Virus record (IMG/VR): IMGVR_UViG_3300021961_000063
Location: 11,207 to 75,206 of that record
Origin: a virus
Direction: 5' to 3' (one strand)
DNA: 64,000 nt
Shown here: positions 1,692 to 60,568 of the stretch, in pieces
Layout: the number at the start of each line of letters is the position of its first letter
Position numbering within the stretch: position 1 is the first letter of the stretch
Position numbers and translations under genes: made by a program
The notes under the pieces: generated by a model
Told to the model about the DNA's origin: nothing
The model's database searches: none
The model's input: only the letters and a program-made list of their open reading frames with translations

Positions 1692-3628
1692 TGGGTTTAT
1701 TAACCTTACTAACAGAACCAAAAAACTTTAAATTTTACACTGGAAAAGGATATTCCGGTGATGGGAATACTATTGGTCTAAAAAGCCTTAGATATGGCAA
1801 TGACCGATTAGGAGGAGCAAATAGTGGCCAGCCTTATATTCAAGTAGGCATTCCCGATGATATTTCTTCATATATAGGAACTACCGATTATATTAATCGT
1901 GGAGGTATTAACGTTGTAAGAGATTCATTAGTAGATGTTGAACGTTTAGGTAAAATGTTCGCTGATACTAGATCTCCAAATGGTATATTTTTTATATCAA
2001 AACAAAATCTTCTTTCTAGAACAGCAGTTAAAACTCAAACTAGTGGTAGATTACTAAATGAAGGAATATATTCTCCTTTATCTACTTTAGCTCAAGCTGG
2101 AGTAGTAGCTTTTGGAGGTCATTTAAATAAACAAGGATTAAATCCTTTTGCTAGTACAGGAGCTTATTCTAATAACGATAACTTATACGGAGTTAAGATA
2201 AAAAATGATCAACCAACAGATGAAAATAGATTAGTAAATTTATTTAATTCTATTGTAAAAGATGATCCTATTTCAAAATTTGGAGGCACAAGAGGCACTA
2301 CTTTAAATCCTGGAGGAAATAATGGTGGTATCCTAATCACATATTCAGGAGGACCAGGTTCTACTTTAGGTGTAGGATCTACTGATATAAGAAAAGCAAA
2401 AACCTTTTATGATGTTTCTTTAGCTTCTCCAAAAAACAACTATTCATATAGTCAAAATACTTGGGTATTTAATTCTAATTTATTACTTACTCCTTACGTA
2501 TACGAAACACTCCCCCCAGTTGTTACAACTAATGCTTCGGATACAACCGAAGGTTCTTTAGCCTCTCCAAAAATCCAAGATTTTAGAGCTTTATTAAGAA
2601 CAAAACTTCAAGGTGAGGAATTAACAAAAGCAAAACAAAGTGGAGCTGTAGCTGAAGCTCCTAGCTATAACTCAAAAAATGTTGATTTAAGAACAAATCA
2701 AGGCCAACCAGGACAAAGAGCAAATAAAAGCTATTATGATTATAGTAAAGGCGTTATTAGTACAGCTACCAATACTTCTTACTATGGTACCGGTTCTATT
2801 GGGGATTTAGGTTCATATAAAAGAGGTTTAGATAAAATAAATTCTTTACCCATTTATAGAAGTGAAGTGGCATCTACAGATAGTGAATTAAATGATTTAG
2901 TTAATTTTAGAATTGCTGTTATAGATAATGATTCACCTAGTTTTAAAACATTCTTACATTTTAGAGCATTTCTAGGCAGTGTTCAGGATTCTTATAATGC
3001 TCAGTGGAATGGATTTAATTATTTAGGAAGAGGTGAACAATTTTATACTTATGGTGGGTTTACTAGACAAATGTCGTTATCTTGGACAATTGCCGCTCAA
3101 TCAAAAGAAGAACTTATGCCTATGTATAGAAAATTAAACTATTTAGCCTCAACTTTAACTCCTAATTACAGTGATAACTATGGGTTTATGAGAGGTAACT
3201 TAGTTCAATTAACTATAGGAGGTTATGTTTATGAACAACCTGGATTTATAACATCTTTAAGTTTTGACATTCAAGAAGATACTCCTTGGGAAATAGGAAT
3301 TAACACACAGGGAAATACAGACACTTCAGTTAAACAACTCCCCCATATTATAAGAGTAAGCGGATTTAGCTTTACACCAATCCAAAGATTCTTACCAGAA
3401 AAACAAAGATTAACCTTTGTAAATACTGGTGGTACTAGTAGTTTAGATACTAGTGATGATACCGGATTTGTTAATAATTATGGAGCACAAAGATATATTT
3501 CATTACAGGATAGTGATACCTCTGGATATAATACATCCTTTGAACAAGCAGCAGCCCAAGAAACAACCCCAGAAGAAATCCAACAAACAATATACCAAGT
3601 AAATAACTACCCGGGGGGACCAAATTAA
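1691..3628 (+). CDS. Putative baseplate/tail-tube initiator protein
   Basis: C-terminal FRAFL..DSYNAQW..YLGRGE.FYTYGGFTR..LTIG domain typical of contractile-tail tube initiators; lies between tape measure and LysM genes. Confidence 0.55.
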   Translation: MGLLTLLTEPKNFKFYTGKGYSGDGNTIGLKSLRYGNDRLGGANSGQPYIQVGIPDDISSYIGTTDYINRGGINVVRDSLVDVERLGKMFADTRSPNGIFFISKQNLLSRTAVKTQTSGRLLNEGIYSPLSTLAQAGVVAFGGHLNKQGLNPFASTGAYSNNDNLYGVKIKNDQPTDENRLVNLFNSIVKDDPISKFGGTRGTTLNPGGNNGGILITYSGGPGSTLGVGSTDIRKAKTFYDVSLASPKNNYSYSQNTWVFNSNLLLTPYVYETLPPVVTTNASDTTEGSLASPKIQDFRALLRTKLQGEELTKAKQSGAVAEAPSYNSKNVDLRTNQGQPGQRANKSYYDYSKGVISTATNTSYYGTGSIGDLGSYKRGLDKINSLPIYRSEVASTDSELNDLVNFRIAVIDNDSPSFKTFLHFRAFLGSVQDSYNAQWNGFNYLGRGEQFYTYGGFTRQMSLSWTIAAQSKEELMPMYRKLNYLASTLTPNYSDNYGFMRGNLVQLTIGGYVYEQPGFITSLSFDIQEDTPWEIGINTQGNTDTSVKQLPHIIRVSGFSFTPIQRFLPEKQRLTFVNTGGTSSLDTSDDTGFVNNYGAQRYISLQDSDTSGYNTSFEQAAAQETTPEEIQQTIYQVNNYPGGPN

Positions 3629-3649
3629 GGTTGAGAAAATTAATAAAAA

Positions 3650-3973
3650 ATGAATAGATATCAAAACATACCAAAAACTAGGATTGACAAAAATTTAGCG
3701 TATGTCACCTCTCGTTATCCTGAAGTACCTATTACTTCAAATGATATCTATGTTTATACAACTCAAGGAGATAGATTTGACGTATTAGCACAACAATATT
3801 ATGGGGATAGTTCATTATGGTGGGTTATTTCTGTAGCCAATACTGGAAATCCAAGTGCAAATACATCTCCTAGTTTACCACAAAATTCATTAGTTATACC
3901 TGAAGGCATTCAATTAAGAATTCCGGCTTATCCCAATGCCGTAGTTGATGCTTTTAATACAATAAATTCATAA
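3650..3973 (+). CDS. LysM-like baseplate wedge protein (gp53/gpX-like)
   Basis: GDRFDVLAQQYYGDSSLWWVI..AN..G.QLRIP. Confidence 0.8.
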   Translation: MNRYQNIPKTRIDKNLAYVTSRYPEVPITSNDIYVYTTQGDRFDVLAQQYYGDSSLWWVISVANTGNPSANTSPSLPQNSLVIPEGIQLRIPAYPNAVVDAFNTINS

Positions 3974-3974
3974 T

Positions 3975-6900
3975 ATGAGTAACCTAATAGGAGAAAATTT
4001 AGACAGTTATGTTGTTTCTCAAATTAAAACTAGGGAAACAATTTTAGGTTCTGCTAATAGAACTAATGAACAAATTATATGGGAAAATAATAAAAACGGA
4101 TGGGTAAAACTTGTATCCTCTGCTAATATACATTCACCCCTTTCTGCTAAATATGGTGGAGGAAGTGAATTAGCTAAAAAATACGTCCTATTTAATGGTG
4201 TCTCTAATGGATTTAATAATACTAGAGCTGGTTTAGATATTAGTGGACCTAAAACAAACCAAGGAGCTTACGGATTAGGAGGTCCTGAATTTGGTTTTGC
4301 CCCAATGCCCGGTATTATGTCTGCTGACATAAAAACAGAAACTAGAGGTACATTAAAAACAGGTACTGTTCAAATTAAAGCTAATAATAAAGAACAATTT
4401 GAAATAATAAGTACCCTTTATATAAGATTAGGTTATTTAATGCTTTTAGAGTGGGGACATAGTTGTTATTTTGAAGACACTAATACTTTCATCAGTGATA
4501 ATTCGGCTACATTAGCTAGTGGATTTTTAAAAGGAAAACTTTCATATCATACCATTTTATCTAAAATTGAAGCTAAACGAGCTGAAACTAAAGGTAACTA
4601 CGATGCTTTATGTGGTAAAGTAGTTAATTACAACTGGAAATTCAATAAAGATGGTTCCTATGATATAACCCTTATTTTAAGAAGCACAGGAGATATAATT
4701 GAATCTTTAAAATCCAACTTACTTAACCCAAAAACACAAGAATCAAATCAACGTGAAATCAATTTAACATCAGGAGAATCAACAAGTGGTTTTGATGCTA
4801 TAGATCCTGATAGAGGATATATTTCTCCTAATTCTATCATCAATGCTTTTGCTTATTCTAGCGTTATAGGTAATCAGTTTGCGCATGAAATGTATTTATT
4901 TGGACAAGAGGCTGCTAACCGAAAAAAGAACGGAATGCAATCACGAGAGGGAAATTGGGGAAATGGTATAAAACATATAGATTACGTTGCTCAAGAATGG
5001 TATGTATCTGGTAAAAGAGTTGATTATTATGTTAGATTTGGAGAATTTTTAGATTTTTTAAAAAATAATGTTATTCCTACAACTGATGGTGTACCGTTAA
5101 TGAATTTTGGTGATATTAATAGTACCTCTATTGTGTGTTATAAACCTCCTAGAATAGTTCCTGTTAACCCGGATATTTGTATATGGAGACAGGAAATTCA
5201 AGATTATATTTTCTTTCCGGAATGTGAACCATGCGTTTTTGATAATAAAATACGATTAATGTATGTTTATATTAATTTTGTTTATGTTCTAAGATGTATT
5301 GAAAACTTAAAAAACGATAAAGGTGAATTAAAAATTATTGATTTACTAAACTCTATATGTAAAGGTTTCAACCAATCAACAGGAAATTATAGTAAAGTAA
5401 CTGCTAGAGTAAATTTAGAAAATAACCAAGTAGTTTTTATTGACGAAAACAGAATCCCAGGAGGAGATAAAACAACAGGTATATTTAATGTATATGGTGT
5501 ACAACCTGGAGTCTATGGTAGTTTCATAAGAGATATAAATTTACAAACTGCTATTACTCCTGAATTAGCTACTATGATTACTATTGGTTCTACTGCTAGA
5601 GGATATACTACAGGAACCGATGCTACTTTTTTATCAAACCTAAACAAAGGAACCTCAGCACGAATTTCAACAGATATTTCTAGTCCTGACAAGGAGGCTG
5701 ACAAGGAATCAAAAACCGATACTCTTTATTCTGATGCTGTTTCTTTATATAATGATTATGTAGGATATACTTCTGTGTATTATCCTAGTGGAAGTACTAA
5801 TTTTGTAGAAGCCCCAGTTTATGATGCTACACTATATCAGAATATGCCAGGGGCAATGCGTCAATTAGTAGAATATGATGAACAATTAGCTACTAGACAA
5901 GCTGCTAAAAAAGATGGAAAATATGCTGGTTCTCCAAGTACTGGATTTTTACCTTTTAATTTATCTTTAACTATGGATGGATTATCTGGTCCTAAAATTT
6001 ATAGCAAGTACAGTATTAACCAATCCTTTTTACCAAGTAACTATCCTGAAACTATGGATTTTATTGTTACAGGAGTAACAAATAATATTTCTAATAATGT
6101 TTGGACTACTACTCTAAATTCAATGGCCGTTCCTGGTTATAGTGTAGTTTCCTCTCCCCCAGGCAAAATACCAGAACCTCCTACTAAACCTCCAATTCCA
6201 AACTTCCTTGGTCCCGTAAATAGAGAAGGCTGTAAACCTTTTGTTCGAAAAACCCTTGCGCTAATGCCCAATATTTGGCCCAATGGTCAACAAAATGATA
6301 GTGTATGGGATGTTCAATTTTTAAGAAAAAATATTGTTGAAATAGCTTCAAAATATGTTGGTCAGGTATGTCTTATTGATGAAAATGTTGGTCAGGGTCG
6401 TATAGGATTTTGTGATCCTGCTTTTGAACAAGAAATGGTAGATATTGGGTGGAGACAAGGTGATCATTGGTGTAATACTTTTGCCGCTTTAATTTATAAA
6501 AAAGCCTATCAATCAACTAGAGTAGAAAATGGCCTTAATGTTGTTATTGATAAAGCTTTTGGTCATACTTTTAATATAGCGGTAAACAAGTTTTTTAATA
6601 TAATGAATGCCGGTGTGATATCTACGGTTACTCGATACCAGGCTTTACAAAAAGAATTATCTAAAAATGGAACAACAGCTTCATTTGTGTGGGCACCTTA
6701 CAAATCAGACCTAAACAAATTAGTACCTGGAGATGTAGTATTTTGGAAAAGAGGAGATAACACTTATGGTCATATCAACATATGCGTTGCTGTAGATTAT
6801 GTTGCTAGAACCTTCCAAACTATTGGAGGTAACGAAGGCCCTGGTTCTCAAGTTTCTTTTACGTTATATAAGATGGATAATGCTTCAATAGCAGGTATAG

Positions 6901-54400: not shown

Positions 54401-54645
54401 TAGATTGGTTTATATTCATTGGGGTTTTGTTTGGTGGGTTTGTTGGAGCTAGGCATATGTGGCTTTTGTTAAACAATCCAGATACAAAAATCAACGAGTC
54501 GAACATCAGATTGGCTTTTTGGGGAACTATACTCGGTTTAGTTTCGTTGTGGGTTCATGGTGTTTGGGGAGTGTTGGCTAGTTATTTAATGGGATTGTGC
54601 TTCGGATTAATCGGAGTAAATTATATGTTTGAAAAAAGAAAATGA
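54397..54645 (+). CDS. Small multi-pass membrane protein
   Basis: Three hydrophobic segments; ATGA overlaps. Confidence 0.6.
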   Translation: MIDWFIFIGVLFGGFVGARHMWLLLNNPDTKINESNIRLAFWGTILGLVSLWVHGVWGVLASYLMGLCFGLIGVNYMFEKRK

Positions 54646-55019
54646 AAAAATTGTTATTTGGATTGGTTTTTATGTTGGCAAGTAGTTTGTCAGCCCAATC
54701 GTATTTGAGAGCCGAAACCTTTACTATGGGGATTAGGTCAAATGAGTATTCTCCTATTCAATGGGGTGAAAGTAATGCATGTTCAATTTTGGTTGAGCTT
54801 TATGAGACTAAAGTTGTTATTAACAGTAAAGTAACACAAACGTATTATGTGGTTAATCAAGCATATAACGGAAATGGTATCGTATCTTGGATGTGTAAAG
54901 ATGCTAATGGTGTTATGTGTAAATTTGTTATGATGAATATGGTTGAATACCCTGGGTATTTGGTTTGCCAAGTAGAGTATAATGATGCTCTTTGGTTTTA
55001 CGTTTGTACAAAAGAATAA
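54642..55019 (+). CDS. Secreted protein (SPI signal, +1 Gln)
   Basis: MKKLLFGLVFMLASSLSA/Q. Confidence 0.7.
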   Translation: MKKLLFGLVFMLASSLSAQSYLRAETFTMGIRSNEYSPIQWGESNACSILVELYETKVVINSKVTQTYYVVNQAYNGNGIVSWMCKDANGVMCKFVMMNMVEYPGYLVCQVEYNDALWFYVCTKE

Positions 55020-55112: not shown

Positions 55113-55976
55113 ATGAAAAAATTAATTTTAGGTTTAGTTGCGTTTATGGTTGCGATGTCTGCCAACGCACAATGTGATTGGAGTGGAGTAAAGGTAAAAC
55201 AACAAACCTTCCGCAACTATTACAAGTTTTATGCTGATGGATTAGATTCAGACAGCTGCACTGATTTCTTTTGGTTGTTTAGTTACAAAAACGCTAAAGG
55301 ACAAATTATTACTGACACTTTTGGGTACAGTCAAAATATTGTTGACTTTTATTTGAATTTGAAAGGTACTTCTAAATTGCGATTGCACGCTGTCAATCGT
55401 TGTGACAAATGCGACACTACTTGGAGCTGGTATTTAGAGCAAGCAATTTTCTTGAATGCTAACTGGGGTTACGGTGAACGTACTTGTAAAAATTATGTTT
55501 TTGAAGCTAACAAGCTAAGCAATCAAAAAGAAGAATGCGTTCAAATTTACTGGTACATGTACGACTACCAGGGTAATGAAGTCGGTTATGATTCAGGTTA
55601 CCGAATTGAGTTTACATTCCCTTGGGAAGGCCAGTTTGATGTTTACTGCCAGTGGTGGAATCATTGCCTGAATCAAGATACATTCTGGGGTCAAACAATT
55701 GATGTGTATTGTGATTCAACAACAAACAGATTAGTTCCAATTACACCTTCAGCACGTGCAATGGCTCGTCCTAATCCTACTAGCTGTGAATTCTATATTA
55801 CAAACACCAGAGCCGTTTATGAGTATATGATTGTAAATCCAGCAGGTACTATTATTGCCGTTGGTCATACAGACCCATTTGAGGAAGTACGAATTGAGAC
55901 TTGCCTTTGGCCTAATGGAGTTTACTACCTGTTAGTAGAAGGATTGGGTCGAGAACTAATAATGATTCAACACTAA
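55113..55976 (+). CDS. Secreted Cys-rich protein with T9SS type A C-terminal sorting domain
   Basis: Signal peptide ..ANA/QC; two PKD-like Ig repeats; RPNPT...I.NPAG..I......I....WPNGVYYL.V. Confidence 0.7.
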   Translation: MKKLILGLVAFMVAMSANAQCDWSGVKVKQQTFRNYYKFYADGLDSDSCTDFFWLFSYKNAKGQIITDTFGYSQNIVDFYLNLKGTSKLRLHAVNRCDKCDTTWSWYLEQAIFLNANWGYGERTCKNYVFEANKLSNQKEECVQIYWYMYDYQGNEVGYDSGYRIEFTFPWEGQFDVYCQWWNHCLNQDTFWGQTIDVYCDSTTNRLVPITPSARAMARPNPTSCEFYITNTRAVYEYMIVNPAGTIIAVGHTDPFEEVRIETCLWPNGVYYLLVEGLGRELIMIQH

Positions 55977-55978
55977 AA

Positions 55979-56005
55979 GTAATTTCTAAGTAATATTACC
56001 GTAAT
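55979..56005 (+). promoter_or_regulatory. Three GTAAT direct repeats at 11-bp period (PhoB/OmpR-type box)
   Basis: GTAAT at 55979, 55990 and 56001, upstream of TBDR gene. Confidence 0.5.
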
Positions 56006-56049
56006 CGGTTATATGTGTGAGGTCGCTATTTATTAGCGACCTTTCGCAT

Positions 56050-58239
56050 ATGTTATTATTCGTTGCAATTTTAAACCTGTTTCAAACCGATACAAGTAAG
56101 ATAGGAGAGGTTAGCATCTCAGTATCTGCAAAACAAGAGACTATCTCATCCACAATTAATTTTCAAAAGAAGAGCTTAGTAATTCTAGACATCGTTTCTT
56201 CAGAATCAATTAACAAAACACCTGACGCTAATATAAGTGGAGTATTAAAGCGAGTAGGTGGTGCTTCAATCCAAAACGATAAATTTATTGTTGTTAGAGG
56301 ATTAGCAGATAGATACAATTCAGTATCATTAAATGGGGCTTTAATAGGTTCAACTGAACCAGATAAAAAATCATTCTCATTTGATTTAGTTCCATCTAAT
56401 TTAGTTGACAATCTAACAGTCACTAAAACAGCCAGTCCAGAAATTACAGGTGAATTTTCAGGAGGCTTGGTTAACATAGTTACTAAAGTACCAAGCAGAC
56501 AAATAAAACAATTAAGTTTGGGATTAGGGTATGGCAGTTTATCTACATTCAATAACGGATGGAAATTAAACACTGCCTATCTACCAACTGATTTCTTATC
56601 AACAAAACAGTTTAGGAGCTTGCCAACGGACGCAAGACGTGCTGAATCAGATAAAATCAGTTCGGTGTTCAATCCTACTCAAACTTTTAATATACCAAAC
56701 CTATCTCTAAAATATACTTTAGGTGATAGAAAATATATAGCTAACCTAACTGTTAGAAAATCAACCAACATTACAACGAGCCAAAGACAGGATTACATGT
56801 CAGGTAGTGACTTAATGTATCAATACGTTGATATAAACTATAATAACGCATTAAACGTTGGAGGTATCATGAATTTTAAATTAAAATCGTTAGATTTTAA
56901 GAATACCTTTAATTACTTAGGTGAAAATTCAATTGTTGAGCGTAAAGGAATAAATTATGATAACCAGCAGTTAATTACTAGTACTAGTTCAAATCACACT
57001 AATAAATTTATTCTACTATCCCAGCTTAATAATAAAAAATGGGGTATTAACTACAGCCTACTTTATAGAACACAGCCTGACTATAGAATTAACCCGTTTG
57101 CTAAAAATATTGATTCAAAAGGTGACTCTAATTTTATATGGAGAGACTCATATAGATTCTGGAGTAGAATGAATGAAAATATTTTAGGTGGTTATTATAA
57201 TGATACTTTAGGAAAAATCAAGTATGGTTTTTATGAGATGTTTAAATATAGAGGTTTTGGTGCTAGAGTGTTTAGATACGACAATGGGTTCATTTTAAAT
57301 GAAATAACCAATAACACAGACAAATATAATGCTTATTCTAATTTAACATCAGGTTATGCCTCATATTACAACTCAAATGGTAAGTTTAGTTATTTAACAG
57401 GTGTTAGAGTTGAGAACCAATTATTCAGAGTTAATACTTACGACTTTGGAGGAACACCTCAAAACATAAACAGAATTTATTTAGACATTTTACCTTCATT
57501 AAATTTAACTTATGGTAAACTAAATAAAGTAAGAATGTCATTAAGCCAAACAGTTGCTCGTCCTGAATTTAGAGAAGTAAGTAACTTTGCATTTTATGAC
57601 TTTGCTAGGAATGCTCAAATAATAGGCAATCCAAACTTAGTAAGAACTAAAGTATTGAACAGTGATTTAAGGTATGAAATATACCCATCCAAAAATGAAA
57701 TAATTACAGTATCGGCTTTCTACAAATACTTTATTAATCCAATTGAACAAACAGTTGATAACGGTTCAGTACCAAGTAATTTGATATTAACATTATCTAA
57801 TTCACCTAAAGCAACTTTGTACGGAGGTGAAATTGAGGTTAGAAAAAATATAACTAAAGACTTACAATTATATTCTAACTTATCTTATTTCAAATCAACA
57901 GTAATAGCTAGTTCATGGTACAGACCATTACAAGGTCAGTCTCCTTACATTATTAATGCTGGTTTGTTTTATACTAAAGACAAATACTCAATAAATGTAC
58001 TTTACAATCGAATTGGTGAAAGAATAGCTGCAGTTGGGTTTCAAGGTTATCCAGACATTTATGAGAATGCAAGAGACGTTTTGGATATAACAGCTCAATA
58101 TGAAACTAAAAGAACAACAATTAAATTCACACTATCAGATCTATTATCTCAAAATTCTAGATTTTATCAGAAGGGCAGAGATTTGATTACTAATAACAAC
58201 GAGACAAATATAAATTTGACTATAAATTACAAACTATGA
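56050..58239 (+). CDS. TonB-dependent outer-membrane receptor
   Basis: Plug I...PD.N...LKRV.G, VRGL.DRY..LNG, FDLVP..L...V.KT, FSGG.VNI.T; barrel G.RVE, LPSLN, RPEFRE, GNPNL, D.RYE, GQSPY..N; start ATG 56050 (track gives GTG 56017). Confidence 0.9.
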   Translation: MLLFVAILNLFQTDTSKIGEVSISVSAKQETISSTINFQKKSLVILDIVSSESINKTPDANISGVLKRVGGASIQNDKFIVVRGLADRYNSVSLNGALIGSTEPDKKSFSFDLVPSNLVDNLTVTKTASPEITGEFSGGLVNIVTKVPSRQIKQLSLGLGYGSLSTFNNGWKLNTAYLPTDFLSTKQFRSLPTDARRAESDKISSVFNPTQTFNIPNLSLKYTLGDRKYIANLTVRKSTNITTSQRQDYMSGSDLMYQYVDINYNNALNVGGIMNFKLKSLDFKNTFNYLGENSIVERKGINYDNQQLITSTSSNHTNKFILLSQLNNKKWGINYSLLYRTQPDYRINPFAKNIDSKGDSNFIWRDSYRFWSRMNENILGGYYNDTLGKIKYGFYEMFKYRGFGARVFRYDNGFILNEITNNTDKYNAYSNLTSGYASYYNSNGKFSYLTGVRVENQLFRVNTYDFGGTPQNINRIYLDILPSLNLTYGKLNKVRMSLSQTVARPEFREVSNFAFYDFARNAQIIGNPNLVRTKVLNSDLRYEIYPSKNEIITVSAFYKYFINPIEQTVDNGSVPSNLILTLSNSPKATLYGGEIEVRKNITKDLQLYSNLSYFKSTVIASSWYRPLQGQSPYIINAGLFYTKDKYSINVLYNRIGERIAAVGFQGYPDIYENARDVLDITAQYETKRTTIKFTLSDLLSQNSRFYQKGRDLITNNNETNINLTINYKL

Positions 58240-59435
58240 AAAAACTATTGTTTTTAGCAGTTGGGGCATTGATGATGCTCAACTCATGCAAAAAAGATCC
58301 AATCGAACCAACAATTGATACGGTTTTAGTTGGAACGTTAACTCAAGACAAAACCTTGACATCAGACAAAGTATGGACATTAAAAGGCTACGTTTACGTT
58401 CCTGAAGGTGTTACTTTAACTATTGAAGCAGGAACCACTATCAAAAGTGACATTGCTGAAAAAGGTGCTTTGTGTATTGAAAGAGGAGCAAAAATTATGG
58501 CCGAAGGTACTGCTGATAAGCCTATTGTATTTACTTCTGGTCAAGCCAGTCCTGCACCTGGTGATTGGGGTGGAGTTATTTTGTTAGGTAAAGCAACTAC
58601 CAACAGAACAACTGAACCAACAATTGAGGGTGGTATTGGAAGACCTTATGGAGGTAATGATGACAATGACAATTCAGGTGTATTAAAGTATGTTAGAGTT
58701 GAGTATGCCGGTATTGCTGCCTTCCCTAATTCAGAAATTAATGCTTTTACATTTGGTGCTGTTGGTGCAGGTACTACAGTTGAATTCTGTGAATCTTATT
58801 ATGGTAATGATGATGCGTTTGAATTCTTTGGAGGTACAGTTAGTCCAAAGTACTTAGTTGCCGTTGGTACTGCTGATGATGATTATGATTTTGATTTTGG
58901 TTATAGGGGAACTATCCAATATGCTATTTCAAAACGTGATCCTCAATTTGTTGATGGTGCTGATGCCGGGAATGGAATTGAATGTGATAATGATGGAACT
59001 GGTTCTTCAGCTACTCCAACTACTCATCCAACATTATTGAACTTTACTTTGATTGGACCTGCTACTTCAAATGCTGCTGCTAATCATAATTTGGCTATGA
59101 GATGGAGACGTGCAAGTCAATTCACAGTTGTGAACTCTATCTTTTATGGATACTTAAAAGGTGGTTTAAGTTTAGAGAGTGATGAAACCGCTCAAGCATT
59201 TAAAGACGGTGTAAGCAAATTTGTAAATAACTATGTCTCGGCTGTTGATACTACTAAATTAACAATTAGTAAATCTTCAGTAATTGCTTCATCTGAAATG
59301 CCTGGTGTTGCTTCAACCTCAACATTCAGTACCTCACAAGTTGCTCCATTCAATAATATGTTTGAATCAAATACAAACATCGGGGCTATTCCTTTCGGTA
59401 CACCAAATTGGTTATTAGGTTGGACTAAGTTCTAA
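58236..59435 (+). CDS. Surface lipoprotein with beta-helix, partner of the TBDR
   Basis: Lipobox LNSC+KKD; LTIEAGT, PIVFTS, GDWGG.ILLG.A, DNSG.LKYVR.EYAG, DDAFEFFGG, W..GWT. Confidence 0.85.
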   Translation: MKKLLFLAVGALMMLNSCKKDPIEPTIDTVLVGTLTQDKTLTSDKVWTLKGYVYVPEGVTLTIEAGTTIKSDIAEKGALCIERGAKIMAEGTADKPIVFTSGQASPAPGDWGGVILLGKATTNRTTEPTIEGGIGRPYGGNDDNDNSGVLKYVRVEYAGIAAFPNSEINAFTFGAVGAGTTVEFCESYYGNDDAFEFFGGTVSPKYLVAVGTADDDYDFDFGYRGTIQYAISKRDPQFVDGADAGNGIECDNDGTGSSATPTTHPTLLNFTLIGPATSNAAANHNLAMRWRRASQFTVVNSIFYGYLKGGLSLESDETAQAFKDGVSKFVNNYVSAVDTTKLTISKSSVIASSEMPGVASTSTFSTSQVAPFNNMFESNTNIGAIPFGTPNWLLGWTKF

Positions 59436-59461
59436 TTAAAATAAAATTATAATTTAATTTG

Positions 59462-59482
59462 GAGGGGCGTAAGCCCCTCTTT
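59462..59482 (+). terminator. Hairpin terminator after lipoprotein gene
   Basis: GAGGGGC-gtaa-GCCCCTC-TTT. Confidence 0.65.
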
Positions 59483-59515
59483 ACATTCTGGTTATAAATA
59501 ACAATATTTATTGAC

Positions 59516-60568
59516 ATGATTAGATTTATCCCCTTACTAAAAGAAGTAGCAGAAGGAGAGAAAAAAATATTATTTCCACTTTCTACAGGTGGAGCCAAAA
59601 CATTAATTTTACTTCCGGGGTCAGGTGCTAATGGTGGACAAGGTAAAGGTGATTTTAATCAATTAGCTAAATCTTTAGGTAAAAATTTTTCAGTGTATAC
59701 TGCTAATTTTTCTAATGAATTAGATGTAAGAAAATATGCTGAGGAAATAGCCGACGAAATAAAAAATAATCCTAATATAAAAAACTTTGCTGTTGGTGGA
59801 TTTTCTATTGGTGGTGCTATGGCTTGGCATTTGGCTAGAGTATTGAAAGATTTAAAAGTTGATAAGTTTGCTAATAAATTGTTTTTTATAGATAGTGGAA
59901 TTGCTGATTCAACAGATAAATTCGTTGATGATATGGTAGCAGGTAATACCCCTAGAGTAGCTATTGCCCAACCCTTAAGTGTATTTAAGAAAAATAGAGC
60001 AGGTAGTAACCTAACACCTAATGAAGAACAACAAATCAAAAACTTTTATAAAGATGCTGATTTAAATACTTTTAAAAAAGAAAACGAAGGTAATTATCTA
60101 GAGTATGTTGGTAGTAAATTTCCACCTGCTGATTCTGAAATTGAAAAACAGGCTAAAGGTATTAATCAAAAAGATCCTTGGGTAATTGAGGATAAGTATG
60201 ATACTACAAATTTTGAAACACGATATAGTGTTAAACCTAAACAAATAAAAGGTAAAACTTTTAAGATAGGTGACCCTATGGATTATAAAGATTTTGCCGA
60301 AAGAGATACCAAAAAGAAAGTAGGTTTAGGTAGAGAATTATCAGGAGGTAAAAAATTAGGTCCTTTAAGTGGTGTTGAAATTATTTCTTTAATTGCTGGT
60401 GATAAAAAAGAAGGTAAAAAATCACCAGAGGAAATAGAGGCAGCAAAAAAAGAAGCAGCGAACGCAACCTCAGGAGCAGCATCAGATGTAGTAGTTATAG
60501 ATGGAGCTACACACAACACTATAACTAAATCACCTAAACTACCATCAGCCATTTCATCTAAATTTTAA
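59516..60568 (+). CDS. Alpha/beta-hydrolase (thioesterase-like)
   Basis: LPGSG, GFSIGG nucleophile elbow, FFIDS, C-terminal DGATH. Confidence 0.7.
   Translation: MIRFIPLLKEVAEGEKKILFPLSTGGAKTLILLPGSGANGGQGKGDFNQLAKSLGKNFSVYTANFSNELDVRKYAEEIADEIKNNPNIKNFAVGGFSIGGAMAWHLARVLKDLKVDKFANKLFFIDSGIADSTDKFVDDMVAGNTPRVAIAQPLSVFKKNRAGSNLTPNEEQQIKNFYKDADLNTFKKENEGNYLEYVGSKFPPADSEIEKQAKGINQKDPWVIEDKYDTTNFETRYSVKPKQIKGKTFKIGDPMDYKDFAERDTKKKVGLGRELSGGKKLGPLSGVEIISLIAGDKKEGKKSPEEIEAAKKEAANATSGAASDVVVIDGATHNTITKSPKLPSAISSKF

Follow-up and report, generated by a model that had tools for sequence, protein, structure and literature searches.

A TonB-dependent transporter and beta-helix lipoprotein pair on a T4-like phage as a candidate phosphorus-uptake unit of the Bacteroidota phosphate-starvation regulon

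Described transporter-lid pairs and the phage locus

Most known phosphate genes of phages come from cyanophages (pstS, phoA and phoH), and their products act in the periplasm or cytoplasm. Here we describe a different kind of cargo, the gene of a TonB-dependent transporter (TBDT) followed by that of a surface lipoprotein, located between positions 55,977 and 59,483 of a 64,000-nucleotide stretch of viral DNA (the window), which comprises bases 11207-75206 of the 75-kb linear IMG/VR virus record IMGVR_UViG_3300021961_000063 (estimated completeness 40%). This cargo differs from those genes in encoding a two-protein outer-membrane machine, which would need Sec, lipoprotein surface export, BAM and TonB during infection. 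We consider it probable (roughly 0.6) that the pair is host-derived, from phosphate-starvation genes of Bacteroidota, and that it serves as a PhoB-wired auxiliary unit for phosphorus uptake within the phosphate-starvation regulon of these hosts.

The closest described counterpart is the Fjoh_0545/Fjoh_0546 pair of Flavobacterium johnsoniae, in which a TBDT with the domains PF07715, PF13715 and PF14905 is accompanied by the lipoprotein ‘FII’ of pectin-lyase fold, in cluster PUSIV of the phoBR region (PMC8115612). Phosphate depletion induces the two proteins several-hundred-fold, nitrogen or iron limitation does not, and both proteins are abundant in the exoproteome (PMC8115612). As in the window, a transporter with Plug and OMP_b-brl_3 domains is followed by the lipoprotein, and the neighbouring genes (glycosyltransferase, OprP-type porin, PhoR/PhoB, PitA and phosphatases) are shared by the cellular homologues found here. 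The window transporter differs from Fjoh_0545 in being carried by a T4-like phage, in lacking PF13715 and in being ∼200 aa shorter. It has been proposed that Fjoh_0546, BT4056 and Caulobacter ElpS constitute one family of outward-facing lids for non-SusC transporters, whose gene adjoins a transporter gene in 621 genera (bioRxiv 10.1101/2023.03.17.533168). ElpS of Caulobacter crescentus is likewise induced by phosphate starvation (PMC2996285), and neither the F. johnsoniae study nor that of the lid family names a substrate (PMC8115612; bioRxiv 10.1101/2023.03.17.533168). BT4055/BT4056 and ElpS/CCNA_00170 resemble the window pair in combining a non-SusCD transporter with an outward-facing beta-helix lipoprotein, the proposed lid; unlike the phage pair, they have been described only from cellular genomes. 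A working model for such systems is provided by BtuB-BtuG and SusC-SusD of Bacteroides (PDB 8blw and 8bmx are among our fold matches), where the barrel is covered by a lipoprotein that passes the ligand on, although the lipoprotein folds differ: BtuG forms a beta-propeller, SusD is helical, and the lid in the window is a parallel beta-helix.

On the viral side, cyanophage pstS and phoA are under host PhoBR control via Pho boxes (PMC10976474). The arrangement is similar to that proposed here, with a host-derived Pho-regulon gene on a T4-like phage and a phased operator of host type upstream, and its presumed purpose, phosphorus for phage DNA synthesis, is the one supposed for the window pair. 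The difference is in the cargo, since cyanophage PstS is a periplasmic orthophosphate-binding protein and the window encodes a two-part outer-membrane machine for heterotrophic Bacteroidota. Phage TBDTs, including a 22-strand one of Lak phages, were found to be transcribed in natural samples in a survey of huge phages (bioRxiv 10.64898/2026.10.24.761521). That survey treats genomes >200 kb and proposes superinfection exclusion; its available part mentions no partner lipoprotein, phosphate link or upstream operator (bioRxiv 10.64898/2026.10.24.761521). Literature phrase searches on phage-encoded or viral TonB-dependent receptors returned nothing and broader searches only this 2026 survey, and no paper was found on the pair, its phosphate link or its operator in phages.

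Table 1. Features of the two-gene unit (window positions)
Feature	Position	Strand	Description
Pho-box-like operator	55977..56009	+	Three GTAAT units, exact 11-bp period (G at 55979, 55990, 56001)
Inferred promoter core	56010..56017	+	TATATGTG, one mismatch from the Bacteroidota -7 element TAnnTTTG
Leader hairpin	56020..56046	+	Stem AGGTCGCT/AGCGACCT, loop 7; ends 3 nt before the start codon
TonB-dependent transporter, 729 aa	56050..58239	+	Short putative signal peptide, TonB-box-like EVSISVSA, plug, full barrel (Pfam, AF2, Foldseek)
Surface lipoprotein, 399 aa	58236..59435	+	Lipobox LNS-C, then KKD; right-handed parallel beta-helix, Beta_helix_4/ElpS-like ‘lid’ type
Terminator-like hairpin	59460..59483	+	GC-rich, then T's; closes the two-gene unit

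The two proteins and their relatives

The initial annotation, made from the sequence alone, had described a receptor of ∼730 aa with plug and barrel, and this is borne out by domain and structure searches. Pfam identifies Plug (PF07715, E 1.4e-7) at residues 45-135 and OMP_b-brl_3 (PF14905, E 8.5e-19) at residues 408-727 of the transporter; the plug is present in all 46 aligned homologues. The AlphaFold2 (AF2) model (pLDDT 85.4, pTM 0.83) matches PhuR, PfeA, Cir, FepA and BtuB in Foldseek with probability 1.00 (E 2e-25 to 1e-20, 700-860 aligned columns). These solved TBDTs are aligned over the full length, and the predicted barrel, whose possible incompleteness had been raised as a concern, is complete. 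The only NCBIfam match is to TIGR01782, the carbohydrate-linked TonB-Xanth-Caul subfamily, at 174 bits and thus under the cut-off of 310. The transporter open reading frame (ORF) could start at GTG 56017 or at ATG 56050, of which the latter is the conserved start; the GTG was rejected because it falls within the leader hairpin and is not open in L003, a 94%-identical relative.

The TonB-box-like segment, IGEVSISVSA, aligns with L(S/D)E(V/I)TV(K/T)S in phage homologues and with L.EVVV(T/K) in cellular ones, and 73 invariant columns are common to the transporter and its cellular homologues. No gene for a TonB C-terminal domain was found in the four near-complete phage relatives described below, which makes dependence on host TonB plausible. 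Together, the conservation of the TonB-box-like segment and plug and the lack of a phage TonB gene in these relatives argue for transport rather than mere display.

The window transporter is a trimmed derivative and not of the standard Plug + CarboxypepD_reg-like + OMP_b-brl_3 architecture. It has 57 residues before the plug versus ∼150 in every cellular homologue, and PF13715 was detected in 22 of 22 sampled cellular homologues versus 8 of 24 sampled phage homologues. The earlier description of a streamlined receptor with no N-terminal domain therefore holds for the window copy but does not extend to all phage copies, a third of those sampled having kept the domain. Relative to other bacteria, phage and Aquirufa copies have a barrel reduced by ∼100 residues, and the window copy is the shortest transporter seen. 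Its putative signal peptide, MLLFVAILNLFQ followed by TDT, is short with no basic n-region, a type found throughout a six-member phage clade, while transporters of the main phage clade have canonical signal peptides of the form MK..LLFFLL..FSQ followed by D.

The lipoprotein gene begins in an ATGA overlap with the end of the transporter gene, and the overlap, length and C-KKD lipobox given in the initial annotation were all confirmed. Its AF2 model (pLDDT 89.8) is a right-handed parallel beta-helix, as anticipated for a partner that is not SusD. VIA-align gave Z ∼23 to many beta-helix proteins, including AlgE4, PL6 and tailspikes, none standing out, so that the match is to a generic fold. The precomputed Pfam family (Pfam 38) is PF28492, Beta_helix_4; NCBIfam and a local Pfam scan gave no match, nor did Foldseek against the PDB at E ≤ 0.001 or a PDB sequence profile search, and PHROGs has no family for either transporter or lipoprotein. 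Invariant motifs common to phage and cellular copies are the acidic clusters DWGG (D110), NDDAxEFFGG (N191) and DDDxDFD (D214) and the motif RxRR (R289); to judge from these residues, they would fit metal-assisted binding or cleavage of an anionic polymer, without naming the polymer. A SusC/SusD pair was considered and rejected, because the partner has no SusD Pfam domain and adopts a beta-helix fold and the transporter matches only TIGR01782, not TIGR04056.

A search among cellular species representatives gave 295 matches, 80 of which were fetched, in agreement with the earlier statement that this pairing occurs in Bacteroidota chromosomes. The cellular pairs are found in Aquirufa (62% identity), Chitinophaga, Pedobacter, Sphingobacterium and others, and their neighbourhoods are of Pho type. 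Within 8 kb lie genes for PHO4 (22 loci), PhoU_div, Metallophos and histidine kinase (16 loci each), OmpR-type regulator (14), alkaline-phosphatase-like proteins (10) and Porin_O_P (9), and a glycosyltransferase gene also recurs. The same genes make up the low-phosphate-induced phoBR/PUSIV cluster Fjoh_0541-0546 (compared with PMC8115612). The suggestion made at the outset of an uptake unit, plausibly for phosphorus, is thus supported by the Pho-type neighbourhoods, the match to Fjoh_0545/0546 and the shared 11-bp-phased array considered below.

The pair is widespread in phages: IMG/VR has at least 143 contigs with it, and the phage copies fall into two deep clades. A search of IMG/VR with the back-translated lipoprotein returned 143 matches; ∼70 of the 80 fetched carry the pair in the same order, the remainder being cut by contig ends, with identities of 42-60% for the transporter and 55-68% for the lipoprotein. 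Four of the carrier records are 162-326 kb long and 95-100% complete; all have a T4-type Gp23 capsid gene and phoH, and in each the pair is internal, which settles its presence in related phages. Neither PstS nor a tyrosine integrase was found in these four genomes. The window itself encodes a T4-type family-B polymerase (PolB), DnaB, ribonucleotide reductase, GroEL and thymidylate synthase (thyA); nearly all ORFs of the window are on the + strand, and its polymerase has T4-like cyanophage and Microcystis phage polymerases as nearest relatives, at ≤34% identity. The phage context noted earlier is therefore secure and the phage is a large T4-like phage of Bacteroidota, whereas its description as lytic should be read as a deduction from T4-like kinship and the lack of a detected tyrosine integrase in the four relatives.

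Both flanks of the pair in the window are syntenic with an independent 41-kb phage contig, L003. The block 55729-59487 is the best conserved part of the comparison (92.5% nucleotide identity, versus 65-88% in the flanks); a recent horizontal swap of this cassette between the two phages was considered and rejected, since some flanking blocks reach 88% and the block is simply the best conserved. The transporter has a dN/dS of 0.11 against L003 and the lipoprotein one of 0.07, and purifying selection maintains the pair in two deep T4-like phage clades. The flanking gene families of phage and cellular loci do not overlap except for a Metallophos phosphoesterase and an epimerase.

A maximum-likelihood lipoprotein tree with Chitinophagaceae and Sphingobacteriaceae as the root, with which a FastTree analysis of 142 rows agrees, places the window with strong support in the six-member phage clade. 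Beside it stands a group in which Aquirufa/Spirosomataceae copies form the sister clade of the main phage clade. Two histories would accordingly explain the phage genes: they were captured twice from Cytophagales-like hosts, or they were captured once, long ago, and later returned to Aquirufa-like bacteria. The small, divergent clade of the window copy combines the shortest transporter with repeats of GTAAT type. Copies from Aquirufa and Spirosomataceae (L083-L090, L092 and L096) have a short, phage-like barrel (∼846 aa), and after them come genes for an alkaline-phosphatase-like protein, PHO4 and a phosphate porin. As far as the sequences go, this suggests gene flow, in either direction, between phages and these lake bacteria.

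Several further loci were observed. Nine phage loci (L027, L031, L045, L054, L058, L063, L065, L067 and L070) have genes for a GT2 glycosyltransferase (∼239 aa) and a Metallophos (calcineurin-like) phosphoesterase (∼240 aa) directly after the lipoprotein gene, as at L070:11413-12845, and the phosphoesterase clusters with one found beside cellular pairs in Pho context. This pairing may recall PlcP-type lipid remodelling under phosphorus stress, by resemblance only. No Metallophos gene was found in the record to which the window belongs. A distant pair (29% and 40% identity) is carried by LR745206.1, a 635-kb huge phage, in the opposite gene order: at LR745206.1:73613-83724 (L163) the lipoprotein ORF, 2431-3726, is followed by the transporter, 3623-6271. 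This suggests that a related Pho-type unit was acquired separately. Two ‘Bacteriophage sp.’ records of 5-8 kb from human faeces (MT838075.1 and MT837092.1) also contain a homologous pair, with identities of 25-30% and 40-48%.

The upstream repeat array and the transcription unit

PhoB/OmpR-family operators have a known geometry of direct repeats at an 11-bp period. The array preceding the transporter (Table 1) has this geometry and lies directly 3′ of the stop codon of the upstream gene. The cellular operons are preceded by tandem repeats, for example GGTAATATTCC-CTTAACATTGG-CATAACATAGC-GGTAACATTGC, and these stop immediately ahead of a TAnnTTTG element (TAGTTTTG and TACTTTTG are examples), which occupies the same place after the last repeat as the inferred promoter core does in the window. 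Across 51 non-redundant cellular loci, the spacing of TAAYA motifs peaks at 11, 22, 33 and 44 bp (71, 42, 26 and 24 pairs, respectively, neighbouring spacings having 0-3), and across 48 non-redundant phage loci it peaks at 11 and 22 bp (27 and 11 pairs).

An 11-mer repeat matrix, built from the upstream regions of cellular homologues only and scored as three consecutive units, was run over the window and the phage loci. In the window, 55977-56009 is the best site on the + strand and third among ∼128,000 positions. In 22 of the 48 phage loci the best site of the whole ∼20-kb locus is at the transporter start, usually 80-90 nt upstream. The region upstream of the transporter ranks first among ∼23 gene-upstream regions in 30 of 48, where 2.3 would be expected (p ∼1e-27, a value that overstates independence because the phage loci are related to one another). 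Only 40 sites score ≥10 in the 1.8 Mb scanned, and 17 of them precede the transporter. In the cellular loci, these arrays are found in front of Metallophos, regulator, PHO4 and porin genes as well. No published definition of a Bacteroidota Pho box was found in the literature, and the arrays are a testable candidate for one.

Other matches to the matrix were noted. Among the strong arrays of cellular loci L091-L161, 21 sites were assigned to the lipoprotein gene and not to the transporter, which may reflect a second, internal operator or crude gene assignment. Five of the six best + strand matches in the window fall within 54.8-59.5 kb. The next-best of them, at 54818-54861 (TATTAACAGTA-AAGTAACACAA-...), lie inside the ORF 54642-55019 and ∼250 nt upstream of a 287-aa gene at 55113; they could represent a second regulated promoter or chance. 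A match at 59467-59499 overlaps the terminator hairpin and was dismissed as probably due to chance.

The terminator that had been reported to close the pair was found again as a GC-rich hairpin followed by T's. The leader hairpin is kept, with base changes, in L003 (∼45 nt upstream of 7815); attenuation, mRNA stability and the end of the upstream transcript are candidate roles. The upstream gene (55113-55976, 287 aa) has a counterpart in L003 that is only 39% identical, and it matched no Pfam, NCBIfam or PHROG family at the thresholds used and no T9SS C-terminal domain model. Downstream, between the lipoprotein gene and thyA, lies a gene for a 350-aa alpha/beta-hydrolase/thioesterase-like protein (59516-60568) with no PHROG or NCBIfam match. 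It is missing in the closest relative, where thyA is directly 3′ of the lipoprotein gene.

Function and alternative explanations

We propose that in the infected cell host PhoB would bind the array, so that the pair would be transcribed mainly under phosphorus starvation. Host Sec, lipoprotein surface export, BAM and TonB-ExbBD would then install and energise the two proteins. The lipoprotein would cap the barrel as a lid and capture, perhaps cleave, an anionic phosphorus-bearing substrate, which the barrel would import and host phosphatases and PitA would finish processing. The phosphorus gained would feed nucleotide synthesis for a large DNA genome, and the pair would fill in Bacteroidota phages the role that pstS has in cyanophages.

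Several observations weigh against this proposal. Many relatives have a stronger array than the window's, which is of GTAAT type and scores 10.5, about a third of the phage loci are without a strong array, and the equation of the repeats with the PhoB site of Bacteroidota is drawn from their geometry and gene context. The phage pair is placed in the Fjoh_0545/0546-BT4055/4056-ElpS family on the basis of architecture, fold, Pfam 38 name and context. The window transporter is without the PF13715/PF13620 (CarboxypepD_reg-like) domain that all cellular homologues keep, and efficient export from its short, uncharged signal peptide is assumed. It is also assumed that outer-membrane proteins can assemble and pay off within one lytic cycle. 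The modelled fold of the lid, finally, is shared in a general way with carbohydrate-active enzymes and tailspikes and does not point to a substrate.

Phages commonly use TonB-dependent transporters as receptors, and the pair might alternatively remodel the cell surface, the phage variant replacing, masking or outcompeting the host version so that other phages or its own progeny adsorb less, with transport secondary. Phosphate-starvation transporters and lids are abundant surface proteins and hence likely receptors, and Pho-linked expression would suit a receptor that is itself Pho-induced. The phage copies are, moreover, systematically altered, the barrel being shorter and the N-terminal domain often lost, and the huge-phage preprint proposes an exclusion role for phage beta-barrels, citing lambda Lom blocking LamB (bioRxiv 10.64898/2026.10.24.761521). 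However, the TonB-box-like segment, the plug and all family-invariant residues have been kept across deep phage divergence, as have the acidic and arginine motifs of the lid, which would be needless in a decoy, and the GT2 and phosphoesterase genes added by several phages have no obvious exclusion role. We therefore regard superinfection exclusion as the main purpose as unlikely. A true importer of a substrate other than phosphorus, such as an acidic glycan fragment, a metal chelate or a cofactor, with the bacterial Pho context reflecting co-regulation only, appears less probable again. The likeness of the lid to pectate and alginate lyases, epimerases and NosD would be in keeping with such a substrate, as would the sub-threshold TonB-Xanth-Caul match of the transporter, and housekeeping genes surround the pair in Pedobacter and Sphingobacterium. 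Yet these same loci keep a phased repeat array upstream, no glycoside hydrolase, siderophore or cofactor genes recur near the cellular pairs, and the F. johnsoniae pair responds to phosphate depletion only, not to nitrogen or iron limitation (PMC8115612).

It is very improbable that bacterial DNA was misjoined to a phage contig by assembly or contamination. The pair is 5.7 kb from the end of a fragmentary contig, close cellular homologues exist, and the records MT838075.1 and MT837092.1 are too short to be judged as viral; against this, GC content is even across the region holding the pair, phage and cellular neighbour families are distinct save the two shared, and the phage copies form well-supported clades of their own. 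Synteny of both flanks with an independent contig and the internal position of the pair in four near-complete T4-like genomes rule out a host-DNA chimera for practical purposes.

The reading of the pair as a PhoB-wired phosphorus-uptake unit can be extended, more tentatively, to a ‘viral Pho regulon’ at the cell envelope of large T4-like Bacteroidota phages. In addition to the PhoB-wired transporter and lid, this would include in some phages a glycosyltransferase and a PlcP-like phosphoesterase that strip phosphorus from membrane lipids, and a trimmed version would have been passed between phages and Aquirufa-like lake bacteria. We hold this wider proposal to be possible but doubtful. If it is true, the phage uses the regulator of its host to sense phosphorus stress and remodels the outer membrane in the course of infection.

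Judged by its upstream sequence, the pair appears to be under the control of the phosphate regulator of its host. It also represents a compact, naturally trimmed version of a very common transporter-lid family (ElpS/FII), which would be useful for finding the substrate. If our interpretation is correct, phages of abundant lake heterotrophs would join in the uptake of organic or condensed phosphorus, and the metabolic reprogramming of hosts by viruses would be wider in extent.

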